Made by a program: the position numbers and the translations under genes. Below are positions 1,567 to 57,796 of a DNA stretch of 64,000 nt, in pieces. The stretch's first letter is position 1. Each line of letters starts with the position of its first letter. Source of the DNA: an uncultured virus (IMG/VR IMGVR_UViG_2576861727_000003) (Duplodnaviria; Heunggongvirae; Uroviricota; Caudoviricetes); IMG/VR virus record IMGVR_UViG_2576861727_000003, one strand, 5' to 3'. The notes under the pieces were generated by a model. That model had not been told where the DNA came from. It was given only the letters and a program-made list of their open reading frames with translations, and did no database searches.

Positions 1567-2844
1567 CTAATCATCTAACATCTTTTTACCCTTTATGTGC
1601 GCCGCTAATGCAATAATATCCGTAACGTCAATCTTACCATCACCATTAACATCGCCATTCTTCCTAGGCTTTACACTATCAGTCTTCTTTGCAGACTCGG
1701 CAAGCTTAGTCTCTACCTTAATATCCTCAGTCTTAGTTTCTACCTTGGCTTTTCCACCGCCTAAAACCTTTGTCTGGTCTTTGGGTCTAAGTACACCAAG
1801 TACATGATTATAATTATGTTTAATCAGCGCAACAGGGTCGTTATTGCCAGTCCAGTTTTGCTCATAGCTCTCAAACCAAGTTGTGTCGCCCTTGCCATTG
1901 CAAATAGCTACATGACCATTCTCGCCAAGACTCTGACCCCATACCATGATATCGCCCTTAATGGGAACAAACTCAGGAGTATTGGGAATACGCTCGTACA
2001 GTTCCTTACCAGGCTGATTTGCAAAATTAGTGTAAATCTCATATGCGCCCATACCTATAAATGCTTTACCACCTATAAGGTTTACAGAGTAATCATTAGC
2101 AAGGTCAAAACACTGGAAAGAGTACATTTTGTCCCAGTCCAGCCCTTTTCCAATTCTCTCAGCGAAATATTTATCAAAAGGAATAACCGTGTCAGTCTTA
2201 TCTTTTGCCTTATTGGTCTTAGGATAACCATTCAGTCCTGCGCCCTTAATAATTGCAGGATAGTCTTTCTCAGCGATATCAGTATCAACATCACCATTAA
2301 TACCGTTAACTTTACCAGTCCATGAATTTTGCCAAATGCCGTATCTCATGCTAGGTTTTCTACTTGTATTAGCGCACCAAATGTCATATTTGTCGAGCGT
2401 AGTCTGAGGAATAGTATTCAGAAATGACTCATATGAATACAGTACAACATAATAGCCAGCTTTCTCAACAGCAGAAATCCATGTTTCAATGATTGCCGCT
2501 TTCTGCCCAGCGGATAAATTCATCTGGTCAGATTCCTCAAAGTCAAATGCAATAGGATAATCAAAAGTCTTACCCTTGATTACATTCAAGAAACCCTGTG
2601 CTTCTCTCTTAGCTCCCTCGACAGTTGTGGCGTATGAGTAAAAGTAGGTGCTAAAGTTTAAGCCTGCGGCTCTAGCGTTTTTATAATTGGTTTCAAATGT
2701 AGGGTCTTTTTGGTCGGGATATGAAACCATATCGCCATAGCCACACTGTGATATCACAAACGAATACCCAGCTTTCTTAACTTTATTAAAATCTATATTG
2801 TTCTGGAAACGGCTTACATCTATGCCTTTAAATGTTTGGCTCAT
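1567..2844 (-). CDS. Endolysin: GH25 muramidase + CHAP-like domain + single dockerin-like repeat
   Basis: GIDVSRFQ and AFDFEE (GH25); QCFDLANDY, GHVAI, YEQNW (CHAP); GDVNGDGKIDVTD (dockerin-type Ca loop); start moved to MSQTFK after a GGAGG RBS. Confidence 0.88.
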   Translation of the reverse strand: MSQTFKGIDVSRFQNNIDFNKVKKAGYSFVISQCGYGDMVSYPDQKDPTFETNYKNARAAGLNFSTYFYSYATTVEGAKREAQGFLNVIKGKTFDYPIAFDFEESDQMNLSAGQKAAIIETWISAVEKAGYYVVLYSYESFLNTIPQTTLDKYDIWCANTSRKPSMRYGIWQNSWTGKVNGINGDVDTDIAEKDYPAIIKGAGLNGYPKTNKAKDKTDTVIPFDKYFAERIGKGLDWDKMYSFQCFDLANDYSVNLIGGKAFIGMGAYEIYTNFANQPGKELYERIPNTPEFVPIKGDIMVWGQSLGENGHVAICNGKGDTTWFESYEQNWTGNNDPVALIKHNYNHVLGVLRPKDQTKVLGGGKAKVETKTEDIKVETKLAESAKKTDSVKPRKNGDVNGDGKIDVTDIIALAAHIKGKKMLDD

Positions 2845-3556
2845 TACAATCCCTCCTTGCATATTCTCCGAAATATTTTTCTTCGTTAGCTTTTCTTACC
2901 GCATATGCTTCTTCAAATGTGTCAAATTGCCCTAGATATAAATTTTTGTTATTATGCCAAATTTGTGCTTTCCATTTTTTACCATTGCGAGTTTTTACTA
3001 CGCCACAAACTCCACTCGTACTTGTGGTAGGAGCTTTATGGTTTTTAGCATTGCAATCTGGTGTACATATTCTCAGATTGCTTCGGAGATTATTAGTTTT
3101 ATCTCCGTCTATATGGTCTATCACATAATTATCAGGTGGAGTCATTAAATATCTATGAAGGTAAATTAGATTGATTTTACCGTCTATTACCTTAGAGGAT
3201 ATAATATATCCATTAGTTGATACTCTCCAATAATAACTTTTTATCTTATCGAGGTCACATAAATTTATCTTAAAAGTCTTGTCACCATCTTCTGTTTTAA
3301 CAATAACAATGTCGTTTTCTATTTCGTATGAGTTTTGTTTTCTCATATCTTTGCGACGTTTTAAAGCAAAACATCCGCAACTAAGAGTGCGCTTGCAAGT
3401 CAAATTATTGCTAAGTACCTCAACCTGATTTCCACAATCGCACCGACACAGCCATTTTATCCTCTCTCTTTTATTTGAAGATACATCTTTTTTAACACGT
3501 TCTAAAACAGTAAGTCTGCCAAATTTTTGTCCTGTTAAATCCTTAAAAGTACCAAT
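2828..3556 (-). CDS. HNH-AP2 homing endonuclease with N-terminal DLTGQKFGRLTV repeat
   Basis: DHIDGDKTNNLRSNLR (HNH), WKAQI..YLGQFDTFEEA (AP2); frame is open to 3559 and the likely start is ATT after GGAGATGA. Confidence 0.85.
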   Translation of the reverse strand: MGTFKDLTGQKFGRLTVLERVKKDVSSNKRERIKWLCRCDCGNQVEVLSNNLTCKRTLSCGCFALKRRKDMRKQNSYEIENDIVIVKTEDGDKTFKINLCDLDKIKSYYWRVSTNGYIISSKVIDGKINLIYLHRYLMTPPDNYVIDHIDGDKTNNLRSNLRICTPDCNAKNHKAPTTSTSGVCGVVKTRNGKKWKAQIWHNNKNLYLGQFDTFEEAYAVRKANEEKYFGEYARRDCNEPNI

Positions 3557-4191: not shown

Positions 4192-5175
4192 TTATTCTGC
4201 TGTGATATATGTACCACCAATATAAATATTACCAGTGTATGTAGCAGCCAAGTCAGGCATTACAATAAATACACACACGTTACCAGTACTGTCAACCCAT
4301 GCTCTTTTGTGCCCTGATTCTGGAGCAGATACAAGTGACTTAGAATCAATCTCTATGCAAACATCAGAGATTGTTAAAGCATTCTTAGGTACTTTAGCAA
4401 CAACAACTGACTGAGCACAAGGTATGTTAGACCCCGTAGTTCCATCAATCATAATTTCTACTACATTACCAGTTCGCTTACTCCAAAAACGGTCGCCGTT
4501 TATAGCAGTACCTACTTTTGTAATAGGTGAATCAACAACAGCTAGTGCTTCTGCTACCGCATTACTCGTAACAGGACTCAAATCACCATTTGTAACTGAA
4601 TCAGTCACATCAGATGTAAGTACAGCATTATCAAGCAGATTGTTATATTCTGTATCTGTGTAGAGCTTGAAAGCTGTATAAACTAAAGTAGACTCATTCG
4701 CAGGCATAGGATTTCTCAAATAACCCGTTTGCATAGGATTCCATTCAGTAGGAAGAGAGACTGCGGGGTCTATTAAAGCAGTATTTTTTGTAAGATTAGG
4801 GTATACATCATCTCTTTGTACAGTAAGCATATAACTTAAATTATTGGTAATTCCTGATACACCAACTTCTGTAGTTTGTTTTACTCCTATGGGTGTAAAT
4901 CTTACAGTAAAACCATTTACCGTTTTTGTGTTTGCAACTACATGAAAAGCAACACGATGCGTATTTGAACCTTGAAGAGATAAATCAACAAGATAGTCTG
5001 TATCAGGCATCGGTGTCGAAAAAGTTATGGTTTGGTCTACGTAATCAGCATTTGCCGCAATAGCGGGTACGCCTACTGTCCCTTTTCTAACTGTAGATGC
5101 ACCGTACTCAGCTTTGCCCTGTCCCGCAAGCGGTATCAACTTATCCTGTGTTGAATCATATTTATATATTGACAT
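4192..5175 (-). CDS. Tail appendage / receptor-binding-like protein with H-type-lectin-like module
   Basis: TITFSTPMPDTDYLV..KTVNGFTV module, VTSNAVA motif, fibre-type C-terminus. Confidence 0.6.
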   Translation of the reverse strand: MSIYKYDSTQDKLIPLAGQGKAEYGASTVRKGTVGVPAIAANADYVDQTITFSTPMPDTDYLVDLSLQGSNTHRVAFHVVANTKTVNGFTVRFTPIGVKQTTEVGVSGITNNLSYMLTVQRDDVYPNLTKNTALIDPAVSLPTEWNPMQTGYLRNPMPANESTLVYTAFKLYTDTEYNNLLDNAVLTSDVTDSVTNGDLSPVTSNAVAEALAVVDSPITKVGTAINGDRFWSKRTGNVVEIMIDGTTGSNIPCAQSVVVAKVPKNALTISDVCIEIDSKSLVSAPESGHKRAWVDSTGNVCVFIVMPDLAATYTGNIYIGGTYITAE

Positions 5176-5233
5176 TTAAAAATCACACTCCTTTATATAA
5201 GGGCGACTCACGTTGAGCCGCCCACAGAATTTA

Positions 5234-6265
5234 TTATTTGGTTTGATAACTAAAGAATAACTGAATATCCCAATCACTTGCAATATCCTCTGTATAAGCT
5301 GACGTATAAAAATTGCCAGTTGCATCTAAATACCCCATTCTCATTTCCGTTACATTAGTAGTCCTGTTTCTGATAGCAAAAGGAATGTCAAGATATGCGT
5401 AGTTATTAGGTGTCAATGGGTTAAAGAAACCGCTATACAATTTAGTACTGTTTGTCACAATACCGTTAGTATGCCCTTTTAGCATTACGCAAACATTTTT
5501 ACCATTTTTACTACAAATATAATCACCTACAGTAGAGACTACACTTTCACTTGATATGGTGGCAAATTGAGTAGCGGGAGGGGCATCTCCGCTATCAGCA
5601 AAACAAACCACTTCATACTCTGCTTTCTCAGCAGTGGTTAAATTACCCCATTCTGCCTGAGTACCTACCCAACGCTTATTTGGTTCTCCCACAACAGTTG
5701 TGCTTCCGTCTGTACTATCGACTGCATTAACGTTAGGCTTGTCTGTGAGAATGGCGACCTGATAATCAGTTTTGGAAGTCTCACTTTCCCACTCAGATGA
5801 AGTTCCTATGAACACAGAACTTGCGTTCTTAATCGCATCGTACACTCCACCCGAAGTAACAAGGTTTGTAGAGTTCTCGGTCGGACTGACATCAATATTT
5901 GTCATCTTATTATATATTGCGTTATAGCCTTCAAGCTCAACAAGACGAAAAGCATAATAGTTTCCTGTGAATGTGTATGTTGTCGTATCTCCACGACCAC
6001 CAAGAACATACAGATTAAATCCTGTTGTAGTTTTGTTTCTAAATCCAATTTCACCCGCCGCAGGAGAATCTGATTCAAATATCACAACATAATCAGTATC
6101 GGACATAGGTGTCTCAAAAGTTATAGTGACATTTGCTCCACTATCTCCTTGACACTGTATACTAAAAGTTCCGCTTCTTATTTCTGAGCAAGTGGCATCA
6201 AGAAGGATAGTGTTTCCCGCTATCTTTTTCAGACTACCATTTGGCTGTTTTATATTTACGCTCAT
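5234..6265 (-). CDS. Tail appendage / receptor-binding-like protein
   Basis: TITFETPMSDTDYVV..KTTTGFNL module shared with the 4192 gene; WVGTQAEW-type motifs. Confidence 0.6.
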   Translation of the reverse strand: MSVNIKQPNGSLKKIAGNTILLDATCSEIRSGTFSIQCQGDSGANVTITFETPMSDTDYVVIFESDSPAAGEIGFRNKTTTGFNLYVLGGRGDTTTYTFTGNYYAFRLVELEGYNAIYNKMTNIDVSPTENSTNLVTSGGVYDAIKNASSVFIGTSSEWESETSKTDYQVAILTDKPNVNAVDSTDGSTTVVGEPNKRWVGTQAEWGNLTTAEKAEYEVVCFADSGDAPPATQFATISSESVVSTVGDYICSKNGKNVCVMLKGHTNGIVTNSTKLYSGFFNPLTPNNYAYLDIPFAIRNRTTNVTEMRMGYLDATGNFYTSAYTEDIASDWDIQLFFSYQTK

Positions 6266-6280
6266 TTATTTCACCTCCTA

Positions 6281-6949
6281 TTACTCATCAATTACAAGCG
6301 CATTTAGATACACAGTACATTCTGTAGGTGGTTGTGCTCCGCCTAATGAATAAGTATAAAATTTAATAGTGATAGTTTTTCCATCTGCGGAAACAATTGG
6401 AGCTTCATCCATTACTGTGACAAATGCACGTCTATTATCTAAAACAGAACCTGTACCGAATATAAATTTCTTACCTGTTGGAGCTGTGAAGATAACATCT
6501 ATGTCGCCAACAGCCCATGCCTGCACTTTAGCAGTCCAGTATGGTTGTGGTATTTGTATTGCATTAGCCACCGCATTACTTGTAACAGGGTTCATATTAT
6601 CTTCTTCAACAACATCTACGACTTCAAGTCCATCGTCATAATCGTCAGTAATATTAACAATCGTTCCTGCTTCTAACGTGTCCTTAATCGCTTCATACTC
6701 TGCTCTCGTGCCAGACCAGTGCGGAGTGCCATCGCCACCATCAGACACTTGCATCTTCTCCCAAGAATAGGTGGGAGTTACCCCGCCATCCGATACGCAC
6801 TTATAAAAATAACCGTTGATATAATTTGCGTTTGTAGCACCTACATACTGTACTATCGCTCCTGAATTATCAGCGGTCGCAGTAGGCATAATAGAAACCT
6901 GTGTGGTTTCGCCTACGTCATAACCTTTATAAACTATTTTATTTCCCAT
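6281..6949 (-). CDS. Tail appendage protein
   Basis: IVQYVG..YINGYFYKC module shared with the 6963 gene; NPVTSNAVA motif. Confidence 0.55.
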   Translation of the reverse strand: MGNKIVYKGYDVGETTQVSIMPTATADNSGAIVQYVGATNANYINGYFYKCVSDGGVTPTYSWEKMQVSDGGDGTPHWSGTRAEYEAIKDTLEAGTIVNITDDYDDGLEVVDVVEEDNMNPVTSNAVANAIQIPQPYWTAKVQAWAVGDIDVIFTAPTGKKFIFGTGSVLDNRRAFVTVMDEAPIVSADGKTITIKFYTYSLGGAQPPTECTVYLNALVIDE

Positions 6950-6962
6950 ATTATCACCTCTC

Positions 6963-8141
6963 TTACAGAAGTTTAACTATAATTGTTACACCCTGATGGT
7001 ACAAATCGTAAGCGGCGGCTTTCTCAGTAGCATCATTCATTGAATACTCTGCTTCGTTAATATACACAGATGATGCACTTGAACCAAAATAAGCATAGCC
7101 AGTAGACATACTATCTGTACCTTTAAATAAGGTTGTATTGATTCCCGCAAAATCACACTTACCCGATGAAACGGATAATCGCCAGCTTATGTCAATAAAA
7201 CCCGCACCGTAGCCATCACCGTGTATACTCGTAGCTGAACCGTATGGAATCCTTATACTGTAATCTTCGGTGGTTTGAGCAATCTCAGGTATGATACAGA
7301 TTAAAGTCGGACTTGACCCACCTGTGTCGTCATCAGAGAATCCGAAATTATACTGGTCAATTGTTATCATAGCCAATCGACCCTTGTTGTTGTGCATGAA
7401 AACAGCAAAGGCATTCCACATAGATTTAAGGTCTGCGAAGTTGCCAACGGAGAATACATCTGAATCCCATTCAAAGGTGTAGTCGGCATTTATTCTTATC
7501 CCCGACTTAGCTGTTTCAAATTCTGTCTTGTAATCAGAAACATCGGGAGTTCCTGTAACCATCCATACAATATCAAGCGTATCTAATGTAGTCTTGTTAT
7601 CGTTGTATAATACATAATCAATCAGACAGGTATCAACTTCCTTGTCACTGTCAGTAGCAACTCCACTAACGACTTCTTTTAAGTGATAAATCGGTGTAGC
7701 GGTAGAATCAATAAGCAGATAGAATCCATCTGCAAGCCCCGAAAGAGATGTTACGGCAGTAGCGTTAACTTTTGCTTCGCCATCAGTGCTTTCCTGCACT
7801 TCCTGATTTACCCATTCGTATTCTGTAGGGTCTGTATTGGGAATTTCTGTACAACGATAAAAGAAACCTTTTATGTAGCTACTATCGGTTTCGCCTACAT
7901 ACTGAACAATTTTGCCTAACTCGTTTTCGTTAGGTGTGGGCATGACATTAACTTGTGATATTTTATCATTAAGCGCATTTGCAATAACTCTATTCTGTAC
8001 AGGATTACTGCTATCCTCAGATATCTCAGTATCTATCGAGGACTTATTAAGTTTCAGTCCGAGCTTTCTATCTATCTCGTTCTTAGAATATCCACTACCG
8101 CCATACTCAACACCGTTATGTATAATCTTAGCCATTACCAT
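6963..8141 (-). CDS. Tail appendage protein
   Basis: NPVQNRVI and IVQYVG..YIKGFFYRC modules; position in the tail cassette. Confidence 0.55.
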   Translation of the reverse strand: MVMAKIIHNGVEYGGSGYSKNEIDRKLGLKLNKSSIDTEISEDSSNPVQNRVIANALNDKISQVNVMPTPNENELGKIVQYVGETDSSYIKGFFYRCTEIPNTDPTEYEWVNQEVQESTDGEAKVNATAVTSLSGLADGFYLLIDSTATPIYHLKEVVSGVATDSDKEVDTCLIDYVLYNDNKTTLDTLDIVWMVTGTPDVSDYKTEFETAKSGIRINADYTFEWDSDVFSVGNFADLKSMWNAFAVFMHNNKGRLAMITIDQYNFGFSDDDTGGSSPTLICIIPEIAQTTEDYSIRIPYGSATSIHGDGYGAGFIDISWRLSVSSGKCDFAGINTTLFKGTDSMSTGYAYFGSSASSVYINEAEYSMNDATEKAAAYDLYHQGVTIIVKLL

Positions 8142-8277
8142 TCACCGCCTCTCTTATCTGTTCCTTTTCTTCCTCAGAAAGTGCGGGATATGAAGCAAGA
8201 ATATCTTCAAGGCTCTCGCCATTTTCCATTCTACGTTTTACAACACGCAGGACAATATGAAATTTTGCTGTTGTCAT
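8128..8277 (-). CDS. Small phage protein (49 aa, not in the ORF track)
   Basis: MTTAKFHIVLRVVKRRMENGESLEDILASYPALSEEEKEQIREAVNGNG; GGAGGTGA RBS. Confidence 0.55.
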   Translation of the reverse strand: MTTAKFHIVLRVVKRRMENGESLEDILASYPALSEEEKEQIREAVNGNG

Positions 8278-8279
8278 AC

Positions 8280-8546
8280 TCACTCACCTCCGTAAAGCAT
8301 CTCAACAATAGTTTCCTCAATATCGTTGAGTCTATCACTATTGGATTTTTCAAATTCAAATATCGAATAAACGTCCTTCGGAATCTTAATTTCCTCAAAC
8401 GAATAAAATTTCTCTTTTATGTCAGAATTGAACTCATTTCCTTGTTCATATTCAACAATATTACGTCTAACATATACCCACTTTTTAGATATTGTGTCAT
8501 CAATTGTTTTGGGTTTTGTCATACTAGATGATTTATACCAAGTCAT
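8280..8546 (-). CDS. Small tail-associated protein
   Basis: GGAGGTG RBS before MTWYK; follows the tail fibre-like gene. Confidence 0.55.
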   Translation of the reverse strand: MTWYKSSSMTKPKTIDDTISKKWVYVRRNIVEYEQGNEFNSDIKEKFYSFEEIKIPKDVYSIFEFEKSNSDRLNDIEETIVEMLYGGE

Positions 8547-8608
8547 ATGTTCGCACCTCCATATATATAAATACAGAGAGAGCAATTATGCACTCTCTCT
8601 GTCACAAA

Positions 8609-10141
8609 TTATCCATTAAAACGAGAAGCCAACGGTTTACAAGATAACGTGGTAGATGCAGACCAATGCGATGTGTCCCAATAGGTATACAAGCCTAACG
8701 CTGTAATACCACAGTTAGTACCCGAAGCAGTACAATCTCCTGCGACCGCATAATAAGTACGTGTTGTATCTTGGTTATTGTGCAAGGTATCAGCATAATA
8801 TGTAGTAACTGAACCACTGGTTTCTATAGGTAAAAATCCAAATGAACCAAAAGCACACTTAGAAATATCTCCGCTATATGGAATTGATATACCTGAATCT
8901 ACATAGTTGTGACCTGTCTGCACATAAGGTTGGGTCATCTTATAAATGTATTTGCCTTGTATTCCTAACAATCCTGCCATTCTTCTCCAAGTACAACCCC
9001 ACCAGTTTTCCATACCGAAAGTTTTAACAGGACTAAAACCATGTTCAATGTCTCCATAGAACAGACCTTTGTTATCCAATGTTCCAGTTACATAAGACTC
9101 TTTTAATGCTTGTGCGCCCGCTACATCATTCTCGCCATCAAGACCACGACCAAAAGCCTTTTGTGAGTCAAGAGATTTTGAAATCAATATGTGTAACGCA
9201 TTTATTAAAACTCTATCACAGAACACATCAGTCAGCCACTCATATTTAGCTGTTGTATTATTTGCAACAGCTCTATTGACTTCTTGTAATCCAGTAGTTT
9301 CACCATTGCCATTTGCAGAAGTTAATTGTATACCTGAAAGCGACCTAAGTTTTGATACACCTGTACCATTATAAATAGCCGTGTAAAAGTGTGGCACAAT
9401 ATTACCATCAGCATCTTTATTACAAGGACAATCATAAGTTTCATATACCTGTTTATTGGAACAATAGAACGAACCTTGTCCTGTTGCAAGACCACTTTCA
9501 AACTTAAACCATATTTTACCCCATTCCATCATGGCATTACCGTCATACTCTGAATTAGCAATATCAGAGGGTGTACCATCTTCCTTTTTACTATAATCAT
9601 TTGGGTCAAGATAATAGTCTACTGTACAATCAGATTTTAACATACAAGGTCTAGGCATAAAGAAAGCATCTTCCCAAGAGCCATAGCTAAACGAAGTTCT
9701 ACCCATCGAAGCAGGAGTCATACCAATAGCATCATTAAGATAAGATACACAATCGGCTGAGTCTGATTCATCGGGGTCTACTGCCCAACCATACACGACG
9801 GTTTCCTCTACCTCTCCATCTGTAATATAATAGTTTTTGTCGTCTGTTTCTTTTTCCGAACCTAATTCGTCATACTCAGCCTGAGTAAGCTCAACGTCCC
9901 ACGCAATCGGGTACTTATCATTATCGCTGGTTACATCTTCCCACTTTGCCTCGGTTTCGTTATATCTATAGATGTGACTCTGTACATAAGCCGCATCTGT
10001 CTCGCCCGAATACAATCTCATAGCGCCATCTTCGGCACTTTCAGGCATAGTATCTGTAATTACAAGTCTGACATTTAAGCGACTTTTTATTTCGTCAATG
10101 AGTTCTTGCGTTCGGGCTTCATTTATATATTTATATTCCAT
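8609..10141 (-). CDS. Tail fibre / adhesin with C-type-lectin (FGE-like) C-terminal domain
   Basis: GMENWWGCTW motif and ..LSCKP terminus resemble phage CLec-fold tail proteins. Confidence 0.6.
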   Translation of the reverse strand: MEYKYINEARTQELIDEIKSRLNVRLVITDTMPESAEDGAMRLYSGETDAAYVQSHIYRYNETEAKWEDVTSDNDKYPIAWDVELTQAEYDELGSEKETDDKNYYITDGEVEETVVYGWAVDPDESDSADCVSYLNDAIGMTPASMGRTSFSYGSWEDAFFMPRPCMLKSDCTVDYYLDPNDYSKKEDGTPSDIANSEYDGNAMMEWGKIWFKFESGLATGQGSFYCSNKQVYETYDCPCNKDADGNIVPHFYTAIYNGTGVSKLRSLSGIQLTSANGNGETTGLQEVNRAVANNTTAKYEWLTDVFCDRVLINALHILISKSLDSQKAFGRGLDGENDVAGAQALKESYVTGTLDNKGLFYGDIEHGFSPVKTFGMENWWGCTWRRMAGLLGIQGKYIYKMTQPYVQTGHNYVDSGISIPYSGDISKCAFGSFGFLPIETSGSVTTYYADTLHNNQDTTRTYYAVAGDCTASGTNCGITALGLYTYWDTSHWSASTTLSCKPLASRFNG

Positions 10142-19150: not shown

Positions 19151-22100
19151 TTATAAACCAACTTGCATTTTCAGCAAGAGGTCGTTTGTATAAGTGTCCA
19201 TAAAGTTCTTAAAGGTATCGTAATCCTTTGCGTTAATAGTTGCGTTGGGGAACGATATCTTAATTTCGTTGTTTACCGATTTGGTCACACCATTTATCTT
19301 ATCGCTACTGGAAATAATCGCATTACTAAATGGCAGATTAATTCCATTAAGCGTTGGCTTAGGTAAAGCATCAATCAGAAGATTGTACGCATTTGTCATA
19401 GCTTTTGTCGCTTTATCCATCACGCCAGAAGAGATAAAGTCGTAAACAGTTCGAGCCTGAGAAGAGCTCAGTGCAACTTCGGATTTTGACGGAGTGCCAT
19501 GAACTTGTGCAATACCAGTGCTAGAAATTACACCGCCATTAGCATAAGAACCAACTGCATCAAGTTTTATTTCTTCAAGGATCCTATCTCTAATACTATT
19601 ACGTATCTTATCGGTAACTAATAGAGCCATTGCTCCTTTATACTGAGACTTGATAACGATATCAGTTATCTTATTAGCAAGCTCTTTACGAGCCTTTTCA
19701 GCCTCTTCTCTTGTACTGTATTCTTTTCCAAGATATTCTTTAGCTACAGGAGCATTACGGAAACTACTATTAGTATTAAGTTTAATTTTGGGTTCATCTG
19801 GAATTTGAGCTTCATTATTAGCCTGTGCTATTTCATTTACAAGTAATTTGTAGTTATTTTTGAATTCCTCAAAGTTTTTGATGCGCTCGTCCCAAGTGCT
19901 CTTTTCGGTAATTTTAATGTCGTCGATTATCTTAAAATAGTTAAGCTTTTCATGATTCTGCTCTTCAACCCAATCATGTATTGCTTGTTTGTCTTTTTGA
20001 TATTGTTTGATTTTCTTATCAATCGAATCAGTATATTCTTTGTTCTTTTTGATTTGTTCATCAATACTATCATCAAGTTGATTCTTGAAGTTAGTATAAT
20101 TTTCTTGATAAGTATTGAGCATATCTTCGTCTCGCTCAATCACTTTTTCGCGCCATTCAGTGCCAAGAATACCATCAGTAATAGCTTCGTCGTGCGCCTT
20201 TGTATACGCATCCATAGCGTCCTGCCAAGCTTCCTTATAGTCTTCCCAAAGCTTGATTTCTGCATCTCGTTCTTTTTCGAGGTCAGCAATTTTAGCTTCA
20301 CGTTCCGACTTTGCAAGGTCTTTCTCGGCTTTATCAACGGCGGCGGCATCAAGCTCATAATGCCAACCTTGGGTTTCACTGTATACACGAACTCTAGTTT
20401 TACGAGCATTTGCTAGAGCATCCTTCTTCTCTTGGAGGTCGATACTTCTTTCGAGTTCTTCGTTTTCTTCCTTTAGCTTATCAATTTGGTCATCGTAATA
20501 TTTAGTTACGTCTTCTATCTTATCTTCAAGAGTTTTAACAACAGTATTACCAGCTATTTCATACTCGTCAACTATTTTCTCAAGTTTTTCTTTCTGGTCT
20601 TCAAGCGCGTCATTTACGTCTTCAGTTGCTTCTTTTTGTTCTTCGAGCTTCTTAATTATCTTATCATAATCGTATTCTACATACGAGAGATAATCAGATT
20701 CGGTTGCGCCGTATTGAACCATTTCAGAAATGGCTGTGCCAAGTGCGTCATCTCTAAGTTTCCTTATTGAATTACCGTAGAAATCACATTCTTTTCGTGC
20801 CTCTGCTGTAAGGGTACCCAAGTCTTTAAAGGTCTTCAACAAGGGTTCAGGTTTTGCTTTTATGAGTTTTGTAAGCCCATATTCTAAGTTACCAAATCTG
20901 TCTTTTGTAAGGTCTACATATTTTGCAAGTTCAGGATATTCCTTTACCAGTTCAAGCACTTCTTTAGTAGAACCAATTTTGTCGGGGGTTAATTCACCCA
21001 TCTTAACTTTCTTTAGAACTTCGCCGAGAGTTGTTAAATCTTTTGTTAAGTCTTCAATCGCATCTTTGTAAAGTGAAACATCGAAACCTTTGGGGTTTGA
21101 CAATTTCTCAAGAATGTCGTTCCAAGTGTTTAAACCTGAGAAGTCTTCAAGTTTATAAAGCTGAGTTATTTGGTCAAGAGTTAACCCTTGAATCTGAGAC
21201 TTAATGGTTTGCATGGTTTTAATCCAGTTTTCGTTGGCGGGCAAATCTTTCTTAAAACGATTTATGATTTTTTCAACCATATCATCGTACTGATTTACAA
21301 TTTCACCGTCGTTAGTTTCAAAATCTACGCCAAGCTGAAGACGAAGTTCTTTTCTCGGTAACTGGCTTTCGTCATAAGTCGGGTCATTTATAATTTCATT
21401 TATAGCTTCGTTAATTTTATTCGTATAGTCCTGATATGTAAGACTAGACCTATCAAGACCTTGAAGCTCAGACATCTTGCTTGTAATTTTATCACTTAAC
21501 CCATCAAGGAAGTCAAGATATTTTTCGACATCAACTTTCATCTGTCTTTCGGCAGACTCAGTGTCGGAGCCTTCTTTAGTAGCTTTATCAAAGAAATCAT
21601 AATTTTGAATAAAACCATCTACTAATTTTTGTTGTTGAGTGCTAAGGTTCCAGTATTTTTCTTGGCTTTTTGCATAACGGTCAACATATTCGTCAAATTT
21701 TTGGTTTACACTTTCTTCTTGGTCATATTGTTGGTCTAATTGTGTTAATAATTCTCTGTTCTTATCTAACAACTGAGGAATCGCTTTGTTTCCAGTTTCC
21801 TGTGCTAATTTATATAGCACATCATATCCTTCGTTGATTCTTTTGGCAGAAGCTATTGTATCTTTCGAGATTTCGTCATATGACGATATCCCGTACTTTT
21901 CCATAATTTGTTTAATTTCAGCAGCTTTTGTTTTATCTTTTTTTGATACACTCATATATAAAGAACCAAACTCTTTATAAAGATTATCATTTCTATCTTT
22001 TATTAAATTGCCTTCAATTTGTCCGTATGATTCATACCATTTTCCAGTGGTAAGTTTATCAATATTAGACTCTATCTCTTTTCGTTGGTTAACAATATCT

Positions 22101-22843
22101 TCAAAAACATTTTTATCATCTCGACCATTGAAGAAAGACGCATAAGTTTCGCGGCGTTGTTCTTTAAGTAACTGAATAGTATCCTCAATAGCCGTGGCAT
22201 TATTAATAAAAGCGTCACCTTGCGCATTTATTCCCTCAACCAATTGAGGATTTATTTGGATTAATTGCTCGACATAATTTTTATATGTCTCATACTGCTC
22301 ATTAGTAAGGGATAAATTTTCACCAGTTCTTGATACTCCAGCAGATAACTTTTTAAATCCCTCTTCAATACTCTCAACCGTTGACATATCCTCAGAGGTT
22401 TTTGACAGTCCTTCGTCTAATGTCTGCATTGCTTTATCGGCGTACTCAGTAATCTTTTGTTTGTGCTTTTCTGTAAATGGTAAGTTTTCCCAAATATAAT
22501 CAACTGCTTTGAATACTAATTGAGAACCTACTACTAAGAGCAAATTCATGCCGATATTTTTCAATATACCTAAGTATTTTGTAGCTCCAGTAGTCATTTC
22601 TGATAAGGCTTGATTTTGGTATGCAACTATACCGTCAACACTTACCTGACTAACATCTTCAACGCTTTCAATATATCCCCTTAAAATATTTCGACTATTA
22701 CCTGTAAACTGAGCAAAGTATTGTTCGTTGGTCATTGGATTTCGACTGGTAAATACAGATGAATAGTAGTCAGAAAGCTGACTTTGAAGCGTCTGTCTTG
22801 ATAACTCTGTGGGGATAAGATTAGATTTTATACCTTTTAATAT
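19151..22843 (-). CDS. Tape measure protein, exon 2 (1230 codons plus stop)
   Basis: Frame is open upstream of the first ATG back to 22843, immediately after the predicted omega-G; long coiled coil; YANGG..AQVHG..EVAL C-terminal motif. Confidence 0.85.
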   Translation of the reverse strand: MLKGIKSNLIPTELSRQTLQSQLSDYYSSVFTSRNPMTNEQYFAQFTGNSRNILRGYIESVEDVSQVSVDGIVAYQNQALSEMTTGATKYLGILKNIGMNLLLVVGSQLVFKAVDYIWENLPFTEKHKQKITEYADKAMQTLDEGLSKTSEDMSTVESIEEGFKKLSAGVSRTGENLSLTNEQYETYKNYVEQLIQINPQLVEGINAQGDAFINNATAIEDTIQLLKEQRRETYASFFNGRDDKNVFEDIVNQRKEIESNIDKLTTGKWYESYGQIEGNLIKDRNDNLYKEFGSLYMSVSKKDKTKAAEIKQIMEKYGISSYDEISKDTIASAKRINEGYDVLYKLAQETGNKAIPQLLDKNRELLTQLDQQYDQEESVNQKFDEYVDRYAKSQEKYWNLSTQQQKLVDGFIQNYDFFDKATKEGSDTESAERQMKVDVEKYLDFLDGLSDKITSKMSELQGLDRSSLTYQDYTNKINEAINEIINDPTYDESQLPRKELRLQLGVDFETNDGEIVNQYDDMVEKIINRFKKDLPANENWIKTMQTIKSQIQGLTLDQITQLYKLEDFSGLNTWNDILEKLSNPKGFDVSLYKDAIEDLTKDLTTLGEVLKKVKMGELTPDKIGSTKEVLELVKEYPELAKYVDLTKDRFGNLEYGLTKLIKAKPEPLLKTFKDLGTLTAEARKECDFYGNSIRKLRDDALGTAISEMVQYGATESDYLSYVEYDYDKIIKKLEEQKEATEDVNDALEDQKEKLEKIVDEYEIAGNTVVKTLEDKIEDVTKYYDDQIDKLKEENEELERSIDLQEKKDALANARKTRVRVYSETQGWHYELDAAAVDKAEKDLAKSEREAKIADLEKERDAEIKLWEDYKEAWQDAMDAYTKAHDEAITDGILGTEWREKVIERDEDMLNTYQENYTNFKNQLDDSIDEQIKKNKEYTDSIDKKIKQYQKDKQAIHDWVEEQNHEKLNYFKIIDDIKITEKSTWDERIKNFEEFKNNYKLLVNEIAQANNEAQIPDEPKIKLNTNSSFRNAPVAKEYLGKEYSTREEAEKARKELANKITDIVIKSQYKGAMALLVTDKIRNSIRDRILEEIKLDAVGSYANGGVISSTGIAQVHGTPSKSEVALSSSQARTVYDFISSGVMDKATKAMTNAYNLLIDALPKPTLNGINLPFSNAIISSSDKINGVTKSVNNEIKISFPNATINAKDYDTFKNFMDTYTNDLLLKMQVGL

Positions 22844-22864
22844 CTAATGTTGATGTGAGAAAAA

Positions 22865-23455
22865 TTATAGATTAATAATCCAAATTTTATAAAATGGTAC
22901 ACTATATATTTTTACATTGTTGTTATCATCTAAATAGTCTTCTAATGAATATTCGGGACAGTTATCTCCAATTTTTTCAAAGCGAATAGCTACAGAATTA
23001 TCTTTATTCCCAAAGACACTATAAAAATCTTCATCTGGAGTATATAAATCTTCTTTATCGTATAAACAATCTATACTTACCTTTGGAAACTCGTTATTTT
23101 TTGATGTTGTGTTTCCCACCCAGAAATCAATATTGACCTCTTTGAATGAGTCTAAAAAGTAAGAACCAAAACTTTGAGTTATTACATCTTGGGATTTACC
23201 ATCAACTAAAACTCTAAAGATATCATTATTGTCTTCGCAATATTCAATTTTCGTTATGTGATTTTTTACCCCCAAAGAATCATATACTCTATTGCTCTTT
23301 TTACAGCAATCATACGCCGCCAATTCTTTGTCATTCAGCACAGCAGATAAAACTTGTTTTTTAAAGACCTTTAGCCCCGCGAAAAGTGCTACTGCCACTA
23401 GCAAAATCACAATTAGAACGACTTGCCATTTTTTCAATTTCTTTGATTTACTCAT
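22865..23455 (-). CDS. Intron-encoded membrane-anchored protein of unknown function (not a homing endonuclease)
   Basis: Basic N-terminus plus VVLIVILLVAVALFAGL TM helix; AAGGAG RBS; no LAGLIDADG, HNH or GIY-YIG motif seen. Confidence 0.8.
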   Translation of the reverse strand: MSKSKKLKKWQVVLIVILLVAVALFAGLKVFKKQVLSAVLNDKELAAYDCCKKSNRVYDSLGVKNHITKIEYCEDNNDIFRVLVDGKSQDVITQSFGSYFLDSFKEVNIDFWVGNTTSKNNEFPKVSIDCLYDKEDLYTPDEDFYSVFGNKDNSVAIRFEKIGDNCPEYSLEDYLDDNNNVKIYSVPFYKIWIINL

Positions 23456-23477
23456 AAAATCACGCTCCTTTCTTTAG

Positions 23478-23506
23478 ATTATATCATTATATCTGATTCT
23501 CGTCAA
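23478..23506 (-). promoter_or_regulatory. Sigma-A promoter inside the intron, driving the cargo gene
   Basis: TTGACG-17 nt-TATAAT ending 22 nt upstream of the ATG. Confidence 0.8.
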
Positions 23507-23895
23507 GATAGAGTTAAGTCGCTTTCTCTCACCACGGCGCGACAGACCGTGTGTAATTTTAATGCCGTCCTATACGACATCACATTTTGGACTATCCAAT
23601 ACATGAAAACAATATCGCCTGTTTTCTATGAAGCAATTATAGTCTCTGAACCTCTCGAACTCAAGGACGCTTATGAATTATACGTCGCCGTCAAAAACGT
23701 AGTCGATTTGGATGCGGATTTTTTCACGCATATTATTACATAGGCTATGCGCTATCTTCTCCGAACGGGATTACAAACCCGTTACTCATGTGAGCCAATT
23801 TATGCTTTTTCACCCTATTATACCACACATAAGCGATTATTTATATGTGACATAAATTCTGGGCATATTATCAGAACCCTTTGATTTTTGGGTTC

Positions 23896-26800
23896 ACCCA
23901 GACCTGTTTTACCCTTAGCGATACCAAATCCTGCCAGTACCATCGGAGCAAGTTTTATCAGCGTATTCGAGCCGCCGATTAATTTGTCAAGAACTTTTAA
24001 TAGTTTGTCTGCACCAGAAATAATAGTCTTAAATCCGTCAGACTCTAATACGTCAGTTGAAAGCTTTTGCCATGTAGCAGAAAGCTGATTTACTTTACCG
24101 TTAATGGAATCCAGAGAAGTCTCTAATTCCTTAGCGGCGCTTCCGTCTGCACTTTCAGTAGAATCCTTTAATGTCTTTCGAGCCACATCAAAGTTTTCAA
24201 GCAAAGCAGAAACGATATTGGCTTGGTTTTTACCGCCAAGTAATTCAGCCAATCTAGCCTGAGATGTTTCTACCATGCCCTGATACGCGGTAGAAAGTTC
24301 GTCGATTATCTGATATGTAGACTTAAAATTGTTTTTATCAATCATTATATCTACGCCAGATAAACTCTGTATTTCGCCGCGAAGCTTTGAAGTACCTTCA
24401 GCTAAAAACTCTATGTCTTCGCCTAATTCAACGAGTTCTGTTTTACTGCCGCGGATACGCGCCGACAGAGTTTTCATTGCAGTACCTACTTTTATCGGGT
24501 CTTGTGCTACAGTGTTCGCCGCTGTGATTAACGCCACTGACTGTTCGAGGCTGTTGTTCGCTGCTTGTAAAGAAGCTGCCGACCTTTGCATAGCTTCACC
24601 GATACCCGCAGAAGAAATCGCAAAGTTATTACCAACATAGTTAAATACATCAACAATACGCTCTGCTGAGATACCAGCCTTTTCAAAAGCCTTTAATGTA
24701 CTTACGATAGACTGAGAAGCGGTTGTGATATCGAGGTCTTCGGCAACGCTCTTGTACATTGTTGCAAGTTCACCAAGTTTTTGAGACTGATTAAGGTCAT
24801 AACCTAGTCTTGAGAACTCCGCTGTTGCGTTTACAAGGTCGCTCATAGAAGCACCGAGTTTATGTGCGCTATTACCAACACCGCGCATAAATCTTTCAAG
24901 GTCTGCCTCAGTCGCATCTGTAACCTTACGTAAGTTAGTTAACGCCGAATCAACCTCTTGAACAGCCGAAACCATTCGCTTAAATGTGGAGATTACACGT
25001 TGAATTGTCATAGTAACCATTGTCCAGCTACCAAACTTTGCGTACATTCCACGCATAACATCTCCAAATGATTTACCAGTTACACCAGCGGCTCTCATAT
25101 CATTCATTAATGCTTTGAAGCTTGTTCTTAAAGCATCAACTTCGTGAGTTCCTAAATTGCCACTTGTAAGTGCATTATATATATCATTATAACGGCTTCG
25201 GTATTCTGGCATTGAGAAGCCTCGGCTATTTGCCGTTAGTGCTTTTTGCATCTGTTCTTGTAAGTTTAAAACAGCTTTTTGCGCTCTCTCGGCTTCGGAA
25301 CCAGCTCTTTCAAGTGTCCTAACCAATGGAGTATCTGCACTTACCCTAGAAAATTCCTGATTAACTTCCTCTATTAAAGTAAGCAATCTAGTCATTTCTA
25401 TATTAGCATCAGATATAGTTTGAGTCGGTAATGCTGACCTTAAAGCTTCTACTTGATTTAAGATTCCACCGTTGCCTTCCTCTCCAATTAATCTAACGCG
25501 AACGGATTTCATTTCATCCGTTTGTTGATATTTGTCTAATTCAGTAACAGTATTACGAATCTTATCTGCTGTATTCTTTAATGCTTTATCAATGGAATTC
25601 TTAGTCGCAATTTCATCAAAAGCGTCACCTAAAGTATGAGCTTGCTGTGTCAGCTCCGCCATTTGTTTGTTAGCATCTTCAAGAGTAATAACAAGCTTGC
25701 CGTCGGAATCAGTTTGCCTAAACTCTTTTTTGAAAGTTTCGATTTTCTCAAGTAATGTATTATACTGAGCTATCATTGCTTCTGCATCGCCAGAAGTTCC
25801 CATCGTAGTAAGTTTTGCAATATTTCCAGTTACCGTACTGGTTAACCCCTTGACACCAGACTCAAGCGATTCGTATGTTTTATACGCCGCTCGACCAAGC
25901 TCGTCTGTTCCTGTGGATATAGTGCCATGCGCAACCTTGCCATTAATATTGAATTTAAAAGAAGATAAAGCTTCGGTGATTTGAGCCTTCATCTTCTCAA
26001 TTGCGGGCTTTGCGTCAAACTCTTCAATCACAGGCTTTTCAATTGCATGGTTTAGTTTTCTACCAAGCGTATTGAGTTTATTTTGATATGCCTTGGCTAC
26101 CTTTTCAAACGTTTCAGAGAATGCCGTTTCATCTGCTGATGGCTCAAGTGTCACATTGTTTAAAGCCCTTTGAGTATCGGCTCTTAATTTTGTTATTGCT
26201 TCTTCTGAAAGCTCAAATGAACCTATAATAACATTTGGAAGAACAACCTTATCTTCAACTGATTTCTCGTCTTTATTTTGAGTTAAAGTTATTGTTTTAC
26301 CAATAGTAACATTTGCAAGCTGTGCTTGAATTTGTCCTCTGACCGCTTCAATTGCTTCGGGAGATACGGCAAATGAGTTGATGGGGATATTTGAGAGACC
26401 ATGAGAAAGGTCTTCGGAAAGTTTAGTAGCCGCAGATGTTGTTACAGAAGCATTACTCTTTTCAGTTTCATAATTCAATGTACCAACAATAGTATTCATT
26501 TGGTCGGTCATTGAAGCTAACTGTGTTTTAAGAGCCTGAATAATGACACCTTCATTTTTTTGAGTGCCAATATTCATCCATCTACCAGTTTCTTCGTGAT
26601 ATTTAGTTCGAATAGCTTCCGCGGTCTCAATCATTCTGTTGACTTGTGATAATTGATTTCCGTCTAATTCTGAAATACCTTGTATCAATCCGTTTTTGCC
26701 AACGCTAATTTTATTTGTATCTATAAAGGCTCTCAATTCAGTTCTAGCCGCTTGCATAGCCTTTGTTAGATTTTTTACGCCATCTATGTTTTTTGGATTG

Positions 26801-27549
26801 CCAACTTCAGGCGCAAAGTTTGCTAAGTCCTGTGGAACAAACTTAGCCGCAGAACTTTCTTGCATTGATTTGAGAAATGCCGCCGAAGATTTAAAACGTC
26901 TTTTTGTTATCTCGTCTGTAAAATCTTTGGTCATATACGGGTCATTTTCTATCTTATTAAGAGAGGAAAGTATCCGATTTGCAAGGCTGTTATAATCCTC
27001 GGATAAAGCCCATAGTTCAGTTCTTGCGTTCTGTAATTTATCTATCTTTGCCTGAATTCCTTGTATAGCGTCGGGATTGCTATAACGAGCTTCTTTGAGC
27101 TGAGCTTTGTATCCTTTGAGTGTTTGTGTATAAGCCTCGTCATTATATTTTTTGCCACTAATACCAGTAAGCTCTTTTAATCTATCAAACGCCTTTCGTG
27201 TTTCTTTTTCTTTGGTTACAAACTTATCAATTAGCTTTGAATAATCAGATATGCGTTTTTCTGTATTCGAAATAGTTTGTTGAGAAATAAAACTCTCTGT
27301 AGTTACTGGCTTGGTTATATCATGAATACCAAATTTATTAACCGCTCTTTGCAATTCACTTACATCGGCATGAAATTTTACGGTTGTTTCTAACCCAGTG
27401 GATAAAACATTTTTAAAGGTATTAAATTCCTTTAGATTTAATTTAATTGGGATACTTCTAGGCTGTGTTAAGCTATCCAATTGCTGTTTAAATTCTTTTC
27501 GGGAACTTTGTTCGAGTCCTATCGTAAACCTCAAATCATATTTACTCAT
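23896..27549 (-). CDS. Tape measure protein, exon 1 (1218 codons, TP901-type core)
   Basis: VDSALTNLRKVT..FSRLGY..VGNNFAISS..VGTAMKTLSARIRG core; spliced product predicted at 2448 aa. Confidence 0.9.
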
Positions 27550-44602: not shown

Positions 44603-44762
44603 ATATAGGTTAGCTGATTATCCTCACAGCCGTTGGTCGTGTTACTTGTAAACCTATACGCCAGAACACAAACTGACTTCTCATAATGAATGAGCTACAC
44701 CTACTCGCCCCTCACTTACGGTCTTATGACTAACCATAAGTTACTAGGCTTTCAGAGATTAG

Positions 44763-44835
44763 CGTTTCCGAAGTGAGTCGAACACTTATCATCCACATTA
44801 ACAGTGTGGCGCTCTTCCAGTTGAGCTACAGAAAC
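44763..44835 (-). tRNA. tRNA-Asn(GTT)
   Basis: GTTTCTG/CGGAAAC acceptor; GCTC/GAGC D stem; CCACA-CTGTTAA-TGTGG; AAGTG-TTCGACT-CACTT; no encoded CCA. Confidence 0.8.
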
Positions 44836-45181
44836 AAATTAGGGGCGTTCACCACGCACAGTGAGCCGCCCTTATAAACCCTCTGATGTGCGTATCTTCG
44901 GATTTGATACCATTAAAAGACCTATCGTGGTACGCATCGTTGAGAGGCGTGATAGGTTCATATTTTCTGCGCTTTTACACTTAGGATAAGGTACGCTAAC
45001 CGACCGCGCCTATTTTAACTTTTAGCTCTCAGCATAGGGAAAGGTGCTACAAGGTAAGTTGACGCTAAAGCACCGACCATTTAAGACATTCTAAAATCAG
45101 ACCCAATACAGGTACTCGGTCTTGAAAACTCATGTCTAATAGTTTTGTTCTGCATTTTTATATTGCTCGTAAAGAGCTGTG

Positions 45182-57546: not shown

Positions 57547-57621
57547 GCTCCCGTGGCGAAATTGGCAAACGCAGTGTATTTAAGGTACATACAACTATGG
57601 GTTCGAATCCCATCGGGAGTA
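57547..57621 (+). tRNA. tRNA-Leu(TAA) lacking the long variable arm
   Basis: GCTCCCG/CGGGAGT plus A73; GTGTA-TTTAAGG-TACAT; ATGGG-TTCGAAT-CCCAT. Confidence 0.78.
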
Positions 57622-57684: not shown

Positions 57685-57796
57685 GTGCCATTAGCTCAAT
57701 CGGTTAGAGCGCGTATTGTGTCTTGTAGAAGACACTTACAGCAGATTTATTTGCTATTCCAAAGCCGAGATGTGGGTTCGAGCCCCACATGGCGCA
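57685..57796 (+). ncRNA. tRNA-like RNA with an expanded anticodon region
   Basis: Intact acceptor GTGCCAT/ATGGCGC, D arm GCTC/GAGC, T arm GTGGG-TTCGAGC-CCCAC; about 60 nt lie between D and T arms. Confidence 0.7.

Follow-up and report, generated by a model that had tools for sequence, protein, structure and literature searches.

A probable group I intron in a phage tape-measure gene carries a predicted membrane-protein gene and no recognizable endonuclease

Introduction

How can an accessory gene sit inside an essential structural gene of a phage? The question arises at the tape-measure protein (TMP) gene of an uncultured tailed phage, IMG/VR record IMGVR_UViG_2576861727_000003, whose 64,000-nt stretch we analysed as a whole and call the window. 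There, two open halves of the gene flank a 1052-nt gap that holds an open reading frame (ORF) for a small protein with an N-terminal membrane helix. In the usual view, phage group I introns are selfish elements that carry an endonuclease or nothing, and morons lie between genes; the two meet at this locus. An original prediction, drawn from the letters of the window, described the gap as a group I intron that splits the TMP gene, and every element that it named lies where it had been placed. We consider it probable that the gap is a group I intron able to splice and carrying a cassette that encodes no endonuclease.

Two halves of one tape-measure gene

Both halves of the interrupted gene belong to a single tape-measure reading frame. 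On the minus strand, a 1243-aa ORF (23818–27549) and a 1230-aa open frame (19151–22843) lie on either side of the 1052-nt gap. The predicted exon 1 (23896..27549, minus strand) comprises 1218 codons and ends ...ACA GGT CTG GGT, with its last base, T, at 23896; exon 2 (19151..22843, minus strand) starts ATA TTA AAA GGT and comprises 1230 codons and a stop. Joined in frame, as the original prediction had it, the 1218 + 1230 codons give a TMP of 2448 aa, with the predicted ligated-exon sequence ...GGTCTGGGT / ATATTAAAA... (the slash marks the junction). Exon 1 matches PF10145 at 1.2e-20 (Pfam), and the two halves are collinear on phrog_4211, a 2625-position tape-measure profile (PHROGs): exon 1 residues 805–1204 correspond to profile positions 555–939, and exon 2 residues 83–700 to positions 981–1508.

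Homologues without an interruption locate the junction. A search with the head of exon 2 for longer proteins found six, three of them full-length TMPs; uninterrupted homologues spanning both halves are P0001 (2627 aa), P0002 (2455 aa) and P0003 (2451 aa). By BLASTP against P0002, exon 1 residues 1–1212 align with 1–1213 and exon 2 residues 1–1230 with 1220–2455. Residue 1212 thus falls on P0002 1213 and the first residue of exon 2 on 1220, in agreement with a 1218-codon exon 1 within one residue; at the junction itself the window reads ...AGFGIAKGKTGLG / ILKGIKSNLI... and P0002 reads ...AGFATAKKTNILS MLGGAKTSLF.... The TMP is contiguous across the predicted junction in all three homologues and in a related phage locus, L010, and no homologue has anything to match the 25 codons by which the exon-1 ORF extends past the exon end. 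Removing the intron therefore restores one TMP, as had been proposed.

Exon 2 does not look like a gene of its own. A TAG codon directly precedes the 3' splice site, and the frame of exon 2 hence opens exactly there. The first 36 codons contain no ATG, GTG or TTG and no Shine-Dalgarno sequence, and no start codon or Shine-Dalgarno sequence is conserved at exon 2 across the six sequences examined. In the window, homology to uninterrupted TMPs starts at codon 1, 36 codons ahead of the first ATG. These features argue against an alternative in which the ribozyme is a decayed relic that has lost splicing, two separately made polypeptides assemble into the TMP, and a moron island lying between two TMP genes accounts for the insert; we return to it below with the evidence in its favour. 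DNA contigs from two other studies, X1 and X2, show exon 1, intron and exon 2 contiguous at ~97.5% identity. A further relative, L002 (TMP 95% identical), stops 63 residues short of the junction, and the remainder of its 38-kb record had no match.

Anatomy of the intron

The gap holds the parts of a group I ribozyme in their expected order. The intron (22844..23895, minus strand, 1052 nt) runs from a first base G at 23895 to a terminal G at 22844. Its core (23559..23895, minus strand) comprises a P1 loop hairpin, P2, P3, a split P4, P5, P6/P6a, P7, P8 and P9. An internal guide (23858..23870, minus strand) consists of the P10 strand TAATAT (23870–23865) followed by the P1 strand GCCCAGA (23864–23858). 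The latter pairs with the exon end TCTGGGT at 7 of 7 positions, with a U.G pair at the splice site, and the former is the exact complement of the exon-2 start ATATTA (22843–22838), 6 of 6 pairs. The Q element AATCCGCATCCAAA lies at 23720–23707, the R element GGTTCAGAGACTATA at 23652–23638 and the S element GGATAGTCC at 23597–23589, and the P7 strands read GACTAT/ATAGTC. Helices P3 to P8 follow the canonical order with a P3/P7 pseudoknot, an order that we checked in three lineages. P8 alone fits between P3' and P7', with no room for P7.1/P7.2 between P3' and P8, so that, by the definition of that subgroup, the intron is presumably not IA-like.

A long-range helix closes the loop that holds the cargo. 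Its 5' strand, AATGTGATG (23578..23586, minus strand), pairs with CATCAACATT (22846..22855, minus strand) just ahead of the terminal G in a P9.0-like helix with one bulged A, leaving one free A before G 22844. Folded alone, the 349-nt core reached −94 kcal/mol (z −3.30), and 0 of 100 shuffles were as stable; the minimum free-energy fold returned P1 with its loop hairpin, P2, both hairpins inserted in P4, P4, P5, P7 around P8, and P9.

These parts suggest how the gene would be restored. The late transcript would fold into a ribozyme that interrupts the 2448-aa TMP frame after a U; through P1, with its U.G wobble, the guide would hold the end of exon 1, and through P10 the first bases of exon 2; and the closing helix beside the terminal G would bridge a 0.7-kb loop to bring the 3' splice site back to the core. 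The spliced mRNA would then have one open TMP frame.

Homologous introns and covariation

Related phages carry the same intron at the same TMP codon. A search of viral contigs with a TMP piece yielded 9 loci, and a core-pattern search of metagenomes yielded 119 (~340 estimated for the whole collection). By blastn, 18 of 135 loci match the window ribozyme; they represent 12 distinct contigs, with ~68% identity over core positions 86–339. All 12 (L003–L005, L007–L009, L021, L043, L056, L070, L088 and L102, hereafter the L004 type) have the intron at the same TMP codon, as does a third lineage, L006, with 50% TMP identity and an intron of 1510 nt (5018–6527). Intron lengths measured at the site are 1052, 1510, 2592 (L004 and L005), 2600, 3222, 3228, 3239, 3250 and 3811 nt; in 4 of the 12 contigs the 3' end lies beyond the available DNA, and those introns are longer than measured. 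Among 50,697 phage records, neither blastn with the intron nor tblastn with the cargo found a match.

The helices that touch the exons follow the exon sequences. P1 keeps 7 of 7 pairs in all 10 distinct aligned sequences, with UGCGGGU/GCCCGCA in the L004 type; L006 adds a third version, CUCGGGU/GCCCGAG. P10 is UAAUAU/AUAUUA in the window, GAGUAU/AUACUC in the L004 type and GAAUAU/AUAUUC in L006; two of its pairs are changed on both sides, and it is complete (6/6) in the window, L006 and six of seven relatives, with 5/6 pairs in L008. The closing helix reads GGUGUA/UACACC in L004 and AGACA/UGUCU in L006, there directly before the terminal G. Deeper in the core, P3 is AAGCA/UGCUU in the window versus CUACC/GGUAG in L006, and P7 is GACUAU/AUAGUC versus GAGUAU/GUACUC. 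The 11 helices that we compared all have complementary strands in collinear order in each of the three lineages, with L006 adding changes that include P3, P7 and the second of the hairpins inserted in P4. Compensatory changes thus keep P1, P10, P2, P5, P6a, P7, P8 and the closing helix paired.

We counted covariation in an 11-sequence alignment (10 distinct rows) on a 70-pair structure. MAFFT misregistered P8 and P9 of the window, which were omitted from the count and checked by their explicit strands. In 99.6% of cells the 70 pairs are paired, and 18 pairs are changed on both sides (P1 2, P2 10, P5 5, P6a 1). Shuffles gave a mean of 1.8 double changes, 0 of 500 reaching 18, and sliding the partners by 1–3 columns gave 0–5.

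L010, the relative with a contiguous junction, has a conventional group I intron elsewhere in its TMP gene (4375–5990, after about residue 1010 of window exon 1). It scores 63.7 bits with the Rfam model RF00028, above threshold, and carries an ORF for a 318-aa, zinc-finger-rich HNH endonuclease (4994–5950).

The cargo of the window intron

The window loop holds one cassette on the sense strand. The cargo ORF (22865..23455, minus strand), for a 196-aa protein with an N-terminal membrane helix, starts at the ATG at 23455, with AAGGAG 9 nt ahead. It sits beyond the P9 hairpin, fills the loop and ends 21 nt before the 3' splice site. Before it lies a promoter-like site, TTGACG-17-TATAAT with a TG-extended −10 (23478..23506, minus strand), which matches the consensus at 11 of 12 positions and is the best sigma-70-like match within 22300–24300. 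Promoter, ribosome-binding site and N-terminally anchored ORF all agree with what had been predicted for the loop. We found no minus-strand terminator after the window cargo, so that transcription begun at this site would continue into exon 2. The putative promoter would fire independently of late transcription.

The protein resembles no described family that we searched. Its N-terminus has a lysine-rich stretch, the predicted membrane helix and no lipobox cysteine. Pfam, PHROGs and PADLOC returned no family match for it and no HNH, GIY-YIG, LAGLIDADG, PD-(D/E)XK or other nuclease. An AF2 model built from 13 sequences (pLDDT 62.7, pTM 0.54) shows a transmembrane helix at residues 4–30, a helix at 42–60 and then a beta sheet. 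Foldseek gave nothing at E<=0.001 (best E 0.18 in pdb and 0.039 in the viral set), and the Atlas (model pLDDT 0.41) gave no usable feature match. The earlier claim that the cargo is no recognizable endonuclease thus held across Pfam, PHROGs, PADLOC, Foldseek and the Atlas.

Could the cargo still be a very divergent homing endonuclease or maturase, and the element an ordinary mobile intron? Homing endonucleases diverge fast, and the moderate AF2 model makes fold searches weak evidence. Yet the HNH endonuclease of the L010 intron is readily detected, whereas Pfam, PHROGs and PADLOC show no nuclease here; the protein opens with a run rich in lysine and a helix predicted to lie in the membrane; and its relatives, antisense and in 1–3 copies per intron, are a poor fit. 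We regard this explanation as very improbable and continue with a non-endonuclease cargo.

Near relatives of the cargo are few: three clusters among 5.8 billion (P0007, 96% identical; P0008, 65%; and P0009). P0008 and P0009 are near-identical to the cargo over their N-terminal ~60 residues, and their C-terminal part is diverged (P0008) or replaced (P0009). Taken from the sequences, this pattern suggests domain swapping or diversifying selection. A cargo search of viral contigs gave 37 pattern matches, 0 of them confirmed.

Cargo in the introns of relatives

The same intron at the same site carries different cargo in relatives, over lengths from 1052 to 3811 nt, and this bears out the original idea of the intron as a landing pad. 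The sense strand of the L004 intron holds a promoter (11/12), 64-aa and 221-aa ORFs and a terminator hairpin, followed by a second promoter (12/12), a 132-aa ORF and a second copy of the terminator hairpin; on the opposite strand, a 12/12 promoter just inside the 3' end of the intron precedes a gene for a 197-aa N-terminally anchored protein. At the place equivalent to the window promoter, L004 has TTGACT-17-TATAAT. By the marks of a moron, the window has its own 11/12 promoter match without a terminator, and L004 has three promoters (11–12/12) and two terminator hairpins. Other contigs carry two or three antisense genes for N-terminally anchored proteins, so that the family occurs in 1–3 copies per intron, mostly antisense. 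L006 holds a gene for a 141-aa membrane protein and, antisense, one for a 201-aa N-terminally anchored protein with a TTGACA-17-TATAAT promoter (identified by eye).

The L009 loop holds other genes instead. The L009 intron exceeds 3.9 kb, its 3' end lying beyond the available DNA, and its loop genes (6834–8795) encode a 135-aa ORF, a 153-aa PemK/MazF-type toxin (PF02452, 2.1e-21; PHROG MazF) and a 338-aa protein with an MrpR-like tyrosine-recombinase core-binding domain. L009 may thus have a second mobile element nested in its cargo. We also considered an invertible cassette, given that the window cargo is sense, that of relatives antisense, and that L009 has a recombinase-like gene; there are no flanking inverted repeats, only the terminator copies, and we rejected it.

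The window cargo belongs with the anchored proteins of the relatives, in a very small family that diverges rapidly. A hidden Markov model (HMM) of 16 relatives' proteins, with the window excluded, matches the window cargo at residues 3–59 with 24.3 bits; its members were picked by a regular expression chosen after the window motif had been seen and the match is largely membrane helix, which makes this moderate evidence. The family alignment, A2, has a common juxtamembrane motif, F31 K32 ... L40 N41 .. E44, and, on the other side of a hypervariable middle, a common C-terminal motif (..FYKIWIINL vs ..SLWKIKLFS) that does not depend on that choice. In a set of 1.84 billion proteins, no more than 27 representatives match the family profile at E<=0.001; in viral contigs, an A2 search gave 199 pattern matches and 0 confirmed, where confirmation relies on the window protein.

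A further alternative accepts the intron but takes the cargo for a late virion or lysis-related gene, such as a holin-like protein or a tail-assembly factor, instead of a conflict gene expressed in the lysogen. The window cargo does lie in the late structural operon, in sense orientation and without a terminator, and would be co-transcribed with the late genes. Against this, copy number, orientation and sequence vary widely among close relatives and intron-less relatives have no cargo, which is untypical of a needed function; paralogues in relatives also have their own 12/12 promoter on the opposite strand. A late function is, in our judgement, quite unlikely.

We favour instead a cassette-bearing intron whose post-P9 loop would be a safe place for accessory genes. 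Any insert would be tolerated if both flanks stay intact, and cassettes would accumulate and turn over. The window loop would represent the simple case, with a single sense-strand cassette of sigma-70-type promoter, ribosome-binding site and N-terminally anchored protein, and relatives the elaborate one, with up to three promoter-gene-terminator cassettes that include antisense paralogue arrays.

Rfam scores, a split P4 and the case for decay

Standard intron models see this family poorly. At gathering thresholds, Rfam detected no group I intron in the window. A covariance-model search, which the original prediction had proposed as a check, stayed below threshold: with permissive filters over 22600–24100, RF00028 aligned to 23467–23859 with 15.1 bits, where gathering requires 50 (E 0.68 for all 4227 families together; ~1.6e-4 if RF00028 is taken as the single family of a prior hypothesis). 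The Q, R and S elements all align to the model, and Q and R match its consensus. In L006 the alignment is partial, with 19.4 bits (E 0.041).

One probable cause lies in P4. Its 5' strand is broken between UUG and CGGA by a conserved 32-nt, two-hairpin insertion (23764..23795, minus strand). Without it, that strand would read AAAUUG-CGGAGAAG, like the RF00028 consensus AAUUGCGGGAAA and the canonical AAAUUGCGGGAAA of locus L001. Hairpin A is GCUC/GAGU in the window versus ACUAC/GUAGU in L004, which covaries, and is absent from L006; hairpin B is AACGGG/CCCGUU in the window and AACGAG/CUCGUU in L006. The model placed the window P4 on a local hairpin and cannot bridge the insertion or the 0.7-kb loop, and these two features probably explain the low score. 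The insertion probably keeps RF00028 from recognizing the family and shows that elements of this kind escape standard intron models. We know of no described counterpart for a two-hairpin insertion that splits P4.

L001 (880–2650) is itself a giant-virus-like RNA polymerase large-subunit gene broken by at least one group I intron. That intron, of the ordinary endonuclease-bearing sort, has the same Q and R strings as the window and a GIY-YIG-like ORF interrupted by a stop; a second insertion, with a cysteine-rich ORF, follows it.

Several observations weigh against a working, cassette-bearing intron. The RF00028 scores of the window and L006 are far below the gathering score, and a 47.6-kb search gave no RF00028 match at E<=5 in L003, L004 or L008. 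A P4 split by an insertion is unusual and could impair folding. All 18 double changes come from a single contrast, window versus L004 type, so that the comparison effectively involves three lineages. In L004 and L021 an in-frame ATG lies 5 codons before the 3' splice site, inside the intron, and in L006 the exon-1 frame stays open for 106 codons into the ribozyme core. L004-type introns have two copies of a terminator-like hairpin with T runs on the sense strand, which late transcription would have to read through; the late RNA polymerase would do so as in antiterminated late transcription. The promoter of the window, like the other promoters and the terminators, is a consensus match only. Ligated-exon RNA is not among the contigs of metatranscriptome run X20, where two short contigs (21776–21947 and 23567–23755) contain no exon joint and are neutral on splicing or transcription.

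The second of these contigs, the only one from the intron, is 100% identical to part of the ribozyme core (P4 3' strand to P3') and may reflect carried-over DNA.

Do these observations favour a decayed ribozyme and a TMP of two assembling polypeptides? The sub-threshold scores, the insertion in P4, the sense-strand hairpins of the L004 type, the in-frame ATG near the 3' splice site of L004 and L021 and the missing exon joint in X20 all fit such a relic. A dead intron, however, would not keep P1, P10 and the closing helix matched to the exon sequences by compensation in three lineages, nor does decay account for an exon 2 whose homology runs ahead of any start. We judge decay unlikely. The features of the proposed intron go beyond chance, because of the single-family E value for RF00028, the stability of the core fold and the covariation with relatives.

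Known systems and significance

The element combines traits of several known systems. In phage T4, the td, nrdB and nrdD (sunY) introns carry endonuclease ORFs in loops of peripheral helices, with their own promoters, and the sunY ORF lies beyond P9. The window intron likewise has its ORF in a loop at the periphery, beyond P9, and separate expression signals inside the intron; it differs in that its ORF is no endonuclease, and relatives hold several cassettes, some antisense and some terminated. Lambdoid morons are promoter-gene-terminator cassettes in late operons, and antitermination reads through their terminators. Near-consensus promoter matches, terminator hairpins (in L004), a tail operon setting and presence or absence of cargo among relatives make the cassettes resemble them, intron-less relatives having no cargo. 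Unlike classical morons, which sit between genes, these cassettes are inside a gene and would be made tolerable by the intron.

What might the cargo do? Sie2009 is a small, phage-encoded, N-terminally anchored superinfection-exclusion protein with its own promoter. The exclusion protein Ltp of TP-J34 is an envelope protein of the same type (PMC3952083), and the title of Bebeacua 2013, cited in that paper, names the TMP as its target. The window cargo is likewise a small, N-terminally anchored phage protein behind a putative promoter of its own. It has no PHROG, Pfam or PADLOC match to known superinfection-exclusion families and no fold likeness to them; the N-anchored architecture alone is similar. 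The protein may act at the cell envelope, in conflicts among phages or between phage and host, and four features fit such a role: the architecture, the own promoters, the copy-number changes and the replaced ectodomains. A conflict function such as superinfection exclusion is nonetheless a guess by analogy, with no homology behind it, and we rate it somewhat less likely than not. Expression of the cargo in the lysogen is also a guess; the window has two integrase-like proteins.

Introns in TMP genes are known. Prophages of the Bacillus cereus group carry group I introns of subgroups IA1/IA2 at three sites of their TMP genes, TMP-IVS1, IVS2 and IVS3, according to Tourasse and Kolsto 2008 (PMC2504315), and some of them are described there as being without a complete endonuclease gene. 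The generalization in the original prediction, that phage group I introns usually carry endonucleases or nothing, needed correcting, in that group I introns of TMP genes had been published before (PMC2504315). Shared with these introns (PMC2504315) are the self-splicing type, the place inside a TMP gene, a P1 and P10 adapted to the site and a patchy distribution among relatives. Unlike them, by the same description (an endonuclease gene or none), the window intron lacks room for P7.1/P7.2, has an insertion in P4, and it and its relatives carry promoter-driven genes that encode no nuclease. The L010 intron, in the same phage group and the same host gene, has an HNH endonuclease, scores above the RF00028 threshold and occupies another site.

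IStrons offer a second comparison. In these elements, CdISt1 of C. difficile among them, the 3' part of a group I intron harbours an IS element (PMC3984707). As in IStrons (PMC3984707), the ribozyme is 5', foreign coding DNA lies ahead of the 3' splice site, and splicing would make the insertion harmless. Unlike IStrons, where an IS605-type transposon as cargo moves the element, the window and its relatives carry membrane proteins and a toxin gene: Pfam found no transposase, whether of the IS200/IS605 or the IS607 type, in the window cargo or in 13 relatives' ORFs; L009 has only the protein with an MrpR-like core-binding domain.

Group I introns in TMP genes are thus known, and promoter-driven non-nuclease cargo in a TMP intron appears to be new: in our searches of the open full-text literature we met no report of accessory or moron cassettes in phage group I introns. 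Splicing would give accessory genes room within a structural gene that is essential and tightly packed, and three diverged lineages have different loads at the same site. A broader proposal follows, for and against which we see about even chances: in this group of gut phages the endonuclease-less TMP intron would be a heritable safe harbour that swaps cassettes, namely genes of either orientation for hypervariable N-terminally anchored proteins, and genes for further membrane proteins and for a toxin of the MazF type. Such an intron may persist without homing, since imprecise loss would destroy the TMP and the cargo may be useful in conflict. Should splicing and cassette expression both hold, the locus would give a new answer to the persistence of endonuclease-less phage introns and a natural design for expression cassettes within essential genes. 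It would also be a new place to seek exclusion or defence genes in metagenomic phages, since all that gene callers show there is a pair of TMP fragments flanking 'hypothetical' genes.

Other features of the window

The window is a tailed-phage genome with terminase, portal, tail proteins, endolysin, two integrase-like proteins and repressor-like regulators; its left end includes a masked or withheld stretch of 574 N (644–1217). The region is present in gut and bovine-gut metagenome runs of 12 studies. A search of genome contigs with the TMP piece gave 124 pattern matches, 0 of them confirmed, and so no host was found.

Several smaller observations concern other loci. The gene for a two-domain endolysin (1567–2862) is overlapped at its start by an HNH endonuclease gene (2828–3403; phrog_99, 1e-36), which may be a free-standing homing endonuclease; Rfam at gathering thresholds found no intron at these two genes. 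An abiF RNA motif (RF03085, 44.1 bits, above threshold) lies at 44920–44956, 85 nt from a tRNA-Asn gene (44762–44835). At 57685–57796, Rfam matches a tRNA with 43.1 bits over 112 nt (model positions 1–71), with no ARAGORN call; the match may represent an insertion-bearing tRNA gene, or else a copy in decay beside tRNA-Leu (57547–57621).

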